Assembly: GCA_021828295.1 (NCBI GenBank)
Contig: JAKASF010000001.1
Coordinates: 2,702 to 66,701 of the forward strand
DNA from: Candidatus Micrarchaeota archaeon
GTDB lineage: Archaea > Micrarchaeota > Micrarchaeia > Micrarchaeales > CABMGC01
Length of the DNA stretch: 64,000 bases
Direction of reading: 5' to 3'
Below the pieces are notes generated by a model. The model searched no databases and was not told the DNA's origin. It worked only from the letters and a program-made list of their open reading frames with translations. Positions 1,170-1,496 of this stretch are shown piece by piece; the stretch's first letter is position 1; every line of letters begins with the position of its first letter. Position numbers and translations under genes: made by a program.

Positions 1170-1496
1170 TCAGCCCTTCTTCTCCGAGAGTATGTAGTTC
1201 TTGACTACCTTTATTACCTGGTCGATGGCCTTCTTTATGTCGGCCTCGGTCTTCGCCCCGGTGCAGATTATCTTGCCGTTCTTGAAGAGAAGCAGCGCCA
1301 CCTTCGGCTCCTTTATCTTGTAGATCGCTCCTGGGAACTGCTCCGGCTCATAGTCAACATCGGGCGACGCCTTGGCTATGGCATAAAGGTCAAGCTCCAC
1401 TCCCAGATCCGCGCTAGCCACTATGTTCTCTATCTTGAACTGCGGCTTGAGCGCTACTCGCTTTGCCACTATATCACGTGCTTTATAAGCAGGCAA
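1170..1496 (-). CDS. Single-repeat TATA-binding-protein (TBP) domain protein, 108 aa
   Basis: [79 protein letters not shown] is one complete TBP repeat (IxN[IV]VAS ... YEPExFPG ... GK[IV]xxTGAK). Only one repeat fits between the stop at 1170 and the divergent L21e gene. Confidence 0.8.
   Translation of the reverse strand: [108 protein letters not shown]

Follow-up and report, generated by a model that had tools for sequence, protein, structure and literature searches.

A stand-alone single-lobe TATA-binding protein at the conserved TBP locus of Micrarchaeales, a candidate symmetric homodimer

A 64,000-nucleotide stretch of a Candidatus Micrarchaeota genome (assembly GCA_021828295.1, contig JAKASF010000001.1, positions 2,702 to 66,701 of the forward strand; hereafter the window, whose own numbering is used for all its features) contains a minus-strand gene, most likely at 1170-1469, that encodes a TATA-binding protein (TBP) with one repeat instead of two. 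This gene probably encodes the lineage's own TBP, cut to one self-pairing lobe, and it is nearly as probable that the protein forms a symmetric homodimer and serves the Micrarchaeales as their main TBP. The widest form of this proposal, to which we give somewhat better than an even chance, holds that the protein is the sole TBP of the order, a symmetric homodimer like the hypothetical TBP that preceded duplication, and that recombination cycles this lineage between one, two and three repeats. The textbook view derives TBP from the duplication and fusion of a single-lobe gene whose product worked as a homodimer. To our knowledge, transcription driven by a single-lobe homodimeric TBP has not been demonstrated in any organism. 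The gene makes this homodimeric-ancestor hypothesis directly testable.

The protein carries a single TBP domain that covers the PF00352 profile from end to end (1-85 of 85; 108.8 bits, E-value of 1.2e-31, for a cut-off of 22.9 bits), where canonical TBP has two in tandem. All ten NCBIfam TBP models match it with half coverage, at ~76-102 bits against cut-offs of 181-347. The Pyrococcus TBP (PDB ID 1pcz) aligns with it by both repeats, the C-repeat with 89 bits and the N-repeat with 71 bits. A preliminary description of this DNA had proposed a stand-alone half-size TBP, and had named as refutations a second repeat encoded nearby through a frameshift or an assembly error, and membership of a non-TBP family with a TBP-like fold. 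Neither was encountered. When the protein was compared by tblastn with the six-frame translation of the entire 64-kb window, no second TBP repeat appeared, and both flanks of the gene are taken by well-supported genes, the DedA/VTT gene leaving a second repeat without space; a frameshift or a hidden second repeat is ruled out by these two observations. An RNase HIII-like/DUF3378 identity is likewise ruled out by the PDB comparison, in which the closest relatives are archaeal TBPs (E-value of 7e-47) and RNase HIII chains reach E-values of only 0.66-0.92. In its structure, the gene corresponds to those of stand-alone monopartite TBP-domain proteins: its open reading frame (ORF) is complete, shorter than 150 amino acids and limited to a single TBP domain. 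It is no mis-annotated half of a longer gene, since the DedA and L21e genes enclose it and its homologues are likewise ORFs of 95-130 amino acids.

The protein is confidently predicted to fold as a single TBP lobe. The AlphaFold2 (AF2) model obtained with a 78-sequence alignment has a predicted local distance difference test (pLDDT) score of 92.1 and the order of secondary structures S1-H1-S2-S3-S4-S5-H2. The top 44 Foldseek matches are all TBPs, with a root-mean-square deviation (rmsd) of 0.8-1.3 Å over 80-88 residues for most of them, and the model superimposes on one lobe of solved TBPs with an rmsd of 0.8-1.0 Å over ~85 residues.

On the minus strand, the longest ORF spans 1170-1496 and encodes 108 amino acids when begun at TTG 1496. 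A convergent gene for a DedA/VTT membrane protein (546-1169, plus strand, PF09335) closes its 3' side and, as initially described, the two stop codons touch, that of the ORF being TGA (1170-1172). TTG 1496 lies 57 nt from ATG 1554 of the divergent gene of ribosomal protein L21e (1554-1841, plus strand, PF01157). The gene had been presented as 108 codons long with one complete TBP repeat and a start 57 nt from L21e: the complete repeat is confirmed, and the spacing holds for TTG 1496, but this is probably not the start, nor 108 amino acids the length. In an alignment of the upstream regions, GTG 1469-1467 of the window faces an ATG in 77 of 79 related loci, the window and L012 having GTG. Read from GTG 1469, the protein is 99 amino acids long and begins with MAK, and homologues are called mostly at 98-100 amino acids with the same MAK N-terminus. 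Because GTG 1469 aligns with these ATG starts, the true coding sequence is most likely 1170-1469 (minus strand, 99 amino acids, GTG start), an assignment to which the PF00352 match, the dN/dS ratio and the fit of the AF2 model to a TBP lobe also contribute. The nine extra codons of the longest ORF (1470-1496, minus strand) are probably noncoding 5' leader and promoter: homologues start downstream of them, they hold an AT-rich element and a GTGAT motif, and translation from TTG would read through the gene's own AT-rich promoter-proximal element.

The single-lobe gene is the positional orthologue of canonical TBP, because five two-repeat TBPs share its L21e-adjacent locus. These five, from other groups of Micrarchaeia, were looked up individually (P0081 and P0077 from Anstonellales, P0010, P0011 and P0002; loci L006-L008, L093 and L094), and 5/5 stand at the same position, divergent from L21e-Rpb4-DUF655. 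Throughout Micrarchaeia, the L21e gene thus serves as a marker of the TBP locus. A convergent gene of 208 codons comes after the two-repeat gene of L008, which matches the layout of the window. Among the single-lobe loci, L21e is adjacent and divergent in 72 of the 76 with room for it, RpoF/Rpb4 and DUF655 are usually near, and DedA is adjacent in 55 of the 79 having room downstream. In the window, the DUF655 gene occupies 2086-2667 (minus strand, PF04919 match) and the RpoF/Rpb4 gene 2707-3045 (minus strand, from the Pfam annotation of the identical locus L005).

Two variations of this neighborhood have been observed. In the single-lobe clade, the RpoF-DUF655-orf72 block (1844-3045 in the window) lies on the strand opposite to L21e, whereas L21e, RpoF and DUF655 are co-directional in the two-repeat lineages (L006-L008, L093 and L094); this difference suggests that a local inversion accompanies the single-lobe clade. 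Moreover, the single-lobe gene is without a divergent L21e neighbor in L089 (9977-10321), L077, L078 and L017. In L089 it lies downstream of genes for a membrane protein and a ribosomal protein L11-like protein (L11 being read from the ORF translation only), and in L017 a local rearrangement places the L21e gene on the same strand, 370 nt downstream.

The one-repeat form is widespread. One genome of each GTDB species was scanned, which yielded 189 relatives, and the best 80 loci were looked at, each within +/-10 kb. These 80 loci, with identities of 75-100%, come from 79 metagenome-assembled genomes (MAGs) whose label is Micrarchaeota, Micrarchaeia, Micrarchaeales or Micrarchaeaceae, and 79 of the loci hold exactly one repeat, the exception being a duplicated copy (L042). 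Carrier contigs are up to 771,545, 726,952, 658,056 and 586,910 bp long. In the protein database, the family consists of proteins of 95-130 amino acids, 81-99% identical to the query, several of them on contigs of 0.2-0.65 Mb. A representative search added further complete single-repeat TBPs with ~60% identity: P0188 (62%; L092 3622-3975), P0223 and P0249 (L091). The first, from MAG assembly GCA_028866905.1, shares the L21e/Rpb4/DUF655 synteny. The one-lobe state is then either deeper than the clade defined by 75-100% identity or of multiple origin. To note, two loci are filed under other names, L071 (DATJMH010000022.1) as 'Candidatus Saccharimonadales bacterium' and L073 (JAKBPE010000013.1) as 'bacterium', and are likely mis-binned or mis-labelled.

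Selection on this family is very strong. Over an 84-codon core and 81 distinct nucleotide sequences, the median dN/dS is 0.044, for a mean proportion of synonymous differences (pS) of 0.73, which is near saturation, and a mean proportion of non-synonymous differences (pN) of 0.075. Compared with the proteins of the window across the same genomes, the mean identity of TBP amounts to 84.5%, versus 65% for L21e, 71% for DUF655, 52% for RpoF and 55% for DedA, and TBP is more conserved than the neighbor in every comparison. As far as alignments can tell, this pattern is the signature of an essential protein and not of a remnant. A functionless truncated pseudogene, decaying after the loss of a repeat, might be suspected from the half-canonical length and from the label 'hypothetical protein' at NCBI, but it is effectively refuted by the dN/dS ratio, by 58 invariant core columns and by the conservation of the start codon, of the Shine-Dalgarno-like motif and of the promoter. 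The preliminary description had also argued against a truncated pseudogene; the one-repeat structure of 79 of the best 80 loci, the low dN/dS ratio and the one-lobe fold of the AF2 model all agree with it. The homologues are named TBP at JGI, and their 'hypothetical' label at NCBI may be due to missed cut-offs of the two-repeat NCBIfam models. A survey of DPANN archaea counts TBP as present in ~89% of genomes (PMC8407392); presence/absence surveys that use NCBI labels may count genomes such as those described here as TBP-free.

The closest two-repeat relatives suggest how a repeat could be lost. Among the 73 two-repeat TBPs closest to the query, half-to-half identity ranges from 39% to 88%. 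Typical archaeal values in this list are ~40-50%, and the most similar halves belong to the nearest relatives of the query: 88% in P0001, 86% in P0002, 80% in P0005, 78% in P0006 and 77% in P0007. The two halves of the P0002 gene (L008 3577-4125) are ~90% identical at the DNA level, and TBPs of the P0001/P0002 type look intact. In P0001, P0002, P0004, P0007 and P0013, the nearest neighbor of the N repeat is the C repeat of the same protein, which points to independent recent duplication or to gene conversion; in P0001, the linker between the repeats nearly repeats the N-terminal tail. A converse case is provided by L042 (1-412 of JAGWHJ010000032.1, MAG REEA76). Its contig starts within an upstream in-frame TBP copy, 100 nt of which match positions 310-409 in the downstream repeat without a difference, and the linker resembles, without identity, the basic N-terminal tail of single-lobe proteins. 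This arrangement indicates a very recent tandem duplication of a single-lobe gene, or strain heterogeneity. Finally, TBPs with three repeats (P0297-P0301 and P0315) are 269-283 amino acids long and all located on short contigs (1-3 kb), so that either real three-lobe genes or repeat mis-assemblies may be involved.

Because of these near-identical halves, of the tandem copy in L042 and of the three-repeat forms, repeat number appears to be unstable in the Micrarchaeia lineage. Near-identical halves would allow the clean in-frame loss of one repeat as well as the reverse event, tandem re-duplication. A neighbor-joining (NJ) tree and the distances of 210 repeats group 62 single-lobe sequences as a monophyletic clade whose nearest relatives have homogenised halves. 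This clade is nearer to the C repeats of the Micrarchaeia P0010 group, yet nearer to the N repeats of the P0027/P0031/P0039/P0043 group. The one-lobe state looks derived or cyclic inside Micrarchaeia, by repeat loss and re-duplication, rather than a surviving ancestor, and the ancestral slant of the preliminary description is abandoned.

The same case of L042 bears on the reality of the one-repeat genes. It shows that DNA-identical tandem repeats exist in the clade, and short-read assemblers might have collapsed two such repeats into one, leaving an intact one-repeat ORF. That the whole family would be such an artefact is highly improbable, as the same structure is found in 79 species from many projects, with at least three styles of contig naming (NODE_, k141_, contig_) that suggest different assemblers. 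The gene lies inside unbroken contigs of up to 772 kb, whereas the true duplication of L042 broke its contig, and related two-repeat genes whose halves are 90% identical in nucleotides have been assembled correctly. The one-repeat form is also seen in three MAGs (L019, L023 and L031) that we take, from their MFD isolate names, to belong to the Microflora Danica project. This project was built from Nanopore long reads (PMC12313526).

The residues of the lobe are those expected of a working TBP. Conservation was derived from a 25-sequence alignment spanning 74-97% identity, with residues numbered along the 108-amino-acid ORF, and its 58 invariant columns include F54 (EQFPG), F71 (LLLF), N24 (IENIVAS) and T79 (ICTGAK). 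In established TBP-DNA structures, each lobe contributes a pair of phenylalanines that kinks DNA, and an asparagine and a threonine that contact the minor groove. In the stirrup, Y49, E50, P51, Q53, F54, P55 and G56 are invariant and E52 (YEPE) is at least 90% conserved; the motif DYEPEQFPG is identical to that of the C-repeat stirrup of Pyrococcus TBP. The contact of the stirrup with transcription factor B (TFB)/TFIIB is known from TBP-TFIIB structures and from TFIIB-defective TBP mutants. By analogy, the lobe would hold the full predicted DNA-contact set together with a TFB stirrup of the C-lobe type.

This complete set of residues also bears on the possibility of a split TBP, in which the lobe would form a heterodimer with another kind of single-lobe protein, the product of a separate locus. 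If divergent, such a half would score below the top 120 matches listed, and MAS1.bin53 is a MAG with two single-lobe genes (L087 and L090). We regard such a heterodimer as very unlikely: besides the residue set, there is one match each in 78 of the 79 MAGs, and the two halves of the relatives are near-identical, so that a second kind of half is unneeded. The two contigs of MAS1.bin53 (JAJZKU01), each with its single-lobe locus, have coverages of 57x and 111x; the pair is probably due to two strains binned together rather than to paralogues.

The proposed history and mechanism are the following. An ancestor in the class Micrarchaeia would have possessed a two-repeat TBP whose halves had grown nearly identical. 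Recombination between these halves would have removed exactly one repeat in frame, tandem re-duplication being the reverse reaction. The remaining lobe of ~99 amino acids would associate with a second copy of itself and rebuild the ten-stranded saddle, each subunit providing one DNA-kinking phenylalanine pair and one TFB-binding stirrup. Self-pairing is the simplest mechanism we can infer, because half a saddle cannot cover a TATA box; TATA binding by the single-lobe protein is itself predicted by analogy with solved TBPs. The two-repeat TBPs with 86-88% identical halves would be, in effect, the covalent form of the proposed homodimer. Such a complex would be perfectly two-fold symmetric, and the direction of transcription would come wholly from TFB reading the TFB-recognition element (BRE). 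In archaea, the orientation of the preinitiation complex (PIC) is set by the TFB-BRE contacts (PMC7289017, citing Bell et al. 1999), so a fully symmetric TBP should be tolerable.

The alternative that deserves most attention is an accessory half-TBP: a canonical two-repeat TBP would be encoded elsewhere, and the one-lobe paralogue might cap a lobe, be a competitor for TFB or TATA, or be devoted to a subset of promoters, in the manner of Halobacterium TbpA. There are precedents for a single TBP-domain protein beside a full TBP, namely Halobacterium TbpA and the monopartite proteins of Thermococcales (PMC3597702). An accessory or antagonist role is nevertheless weakened by positional orthology, the gene being located at the very locus conserved for TBP. 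Its product surpasses the ribosomal and RNA polymerase-subunit neighbors in conservation, and over 79 species both promoter and synteny remain stable. Furthermore, with ~1 Mb or less, Micrarchaeales genomes offer scant space for redundant genes. No two-repeat TBP was found on the same contig as a single-lobe gene among the ~180 closest clusters listed, the carrier contigs including four of 587-772 kb; as it compares the longest contig of each cluster with the single-lobe carrier contigs, this is a weak negative, limited to the listed hits. An accessory role is accordingly judged unlikely, though it is a serious contender.

Several observations weigh against a sole homodimeric TBP derived by repeat loss. 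The same-contig comparison is blind to other contigs, so a canonical TBP or a different half may be encoded elsewhere in the genome, and the data are drawn from loci rather than from complete genomes, which an accessory role would fit. All genomes of the sample are MAGs, with no cultured isolate among them. The NJ tree and the distances point to neither the N nor the C repeat as the source of the retained lobe. Lastly, AF2 with a shallow, family-only alignment gave a pLDDT of 45.8 for the monomer.

The single-lobe TBP would be expressed from a promoter that is conserved along with the gene. TATA-like elements had been noted between the TBP gene and L21e; they are real, and their positions are conserved across related loci. 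The distal TATA box, GGTATATAAATACC, is located at 1497-1510 (minus strand), ~50 nt away from the start of the divergent L21e gene, and is flanked by inverted GGTAT/ATACC; distal TATA-like 8-mers start between -37 and -44 in most of 78 loci. It is the probable promoter of the TBP gene, and might be common to L21e. The proximal AT-rich element, TTATAAAG, at 1481-1488 (minus strand), starts at -19 from the start codon, and proximal TATA-like 8-mers start between -17 and -20 in most of the 78 loci; this is probably a promoter-proximal or initiator-region element. A GTGAT motif at 1473-1477 (minus strand) ends 3 nt before the GTG start, spanning -8 to -4; GTGAT/GGTG-type motifs recur at the equivalent place in related loci, suggesting a Shine-Dalgarno-like function. 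In L089, both upstream elements precede the relocated gene, away from L21e, and since they have followed it there they belong to the TBP gene.

The upstream order of the window (1473-1510) is that of L011-L090: GGTATATAAATACC(TTTCA), ~20 nt further an AT-rich TTTATAAA/ATTTAAA, then GTGAT/GGTG and the start codon. The idea of the proximal TATA-like element being an exotic autoregulatory operator has been dropped: lying ~3-10 nt upstream of where transcription is predicted to start, it is consistent with an ordinary AT-rich element of the promoter-proximal kind.

Two other regions of the window are worth mentioning. At 6037-16813 (plus strand), nine consecutive ORFs encode proteins of 243-634 amino acids, located between MoxR/DUF2079 genes and the gene of a HerA/TraG-like ATPase (18487-20067). 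None of the seven ORFs scanned has a Pfam match, the scan having left out 7983-8714 as well as the short ORF 5619-6011. The first few ORFs of this block are also found beside the TBP locus in the related contigs L001-L005. At 42323-51046 (minus strand), three very large proteins (722-1120 amino acids) exhibit several LamG/concanavalin-like domains as well as one PQQ beta-propeller, and may be located at the surface.

If the single-lobe protein is a true working TBP, it would offer biochemistry a natural symmetric TBP with which to address intrinsic promoter polarity and the sufficiency of TFB-BRE contacts. The series of one-, two- and three-repeat forms would then show how repeat fusion and asymmetry evolve, and if the lineage does cycle its repeat number, the step from homodimer to fused pseudo-dimer would be observable in nature. 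Searches of the open literature on Micrarchaeota, DPANN and single-repeat, monopartite or homodimeric TBP returned no description of a single-lobe family, only Brindefalk et al. 2013 and general reviews.

Comparison with known systems highlights the conserved and the distinct parts of this protein. Canonical archaeal TBP, as in Pyrococcus woesei (PDB IDs 1pcz and 1ais), shares with it the PF00352 domain, the DNA-contact and stirrup motifs and the structure of one lobe, with an rmsd of ~1 Å and 47% identity to 1pcz in Foldseek. It has two repeats per chain, whereas the single-lobe TBP has one and would need a dimer to form the saddle. The closest relatives are the two-repeat TBPs of Micrarchaeia (P0001, P0002 and P0005-P0007), 64-70% identical to the query, which are found at its locus (L008) and carry the YEPEQFPG stirrup in each half; they differ by covalently joined lobes whose halves are 77-88% identical. 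With the RNase HIII N-terminal domain/DUF3378, only the superfamily fold is shared, sequence matches being marginal. Halobacterium TbpA also consists of a single TBP domain that groups with genuine TBP repeats and not with diverged TBP-like domains (PMC3597702). By that account, TbpA strongly resembles the full-length TBPs of its own species and is dispensable (Brindefalk et al. 2013, PMC3597702), whereas the Micrarchaeales gene stands at the conserved TBP locus in at least 79 species under very strong constraint. The monopartite proteins of Thermococcales (P. furiosus NP_578195) are likewise stand-alone, of ~90-100 amino acids and with a TBP-domain fold. They are distant from TBP, form their own sequence cluster and exist beside a normal TBP (PMC3597702, Table 3), whereas the Micrarchaeales lobe is a near-canonical TBP repeat, with 109 bits to PF00352. 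Stand-alone TBP domains known before are thus either extras of plasmid type or strongly diverged proteins accompanied by a normal TBP. Judging from these comparisons, the single-lobe TBP is new with respect to the types of Brindefalk et al.: a near-canonical repeat, chromosomal at the TBP locus, that spans an order-level clade and is maintained under very strong selection.

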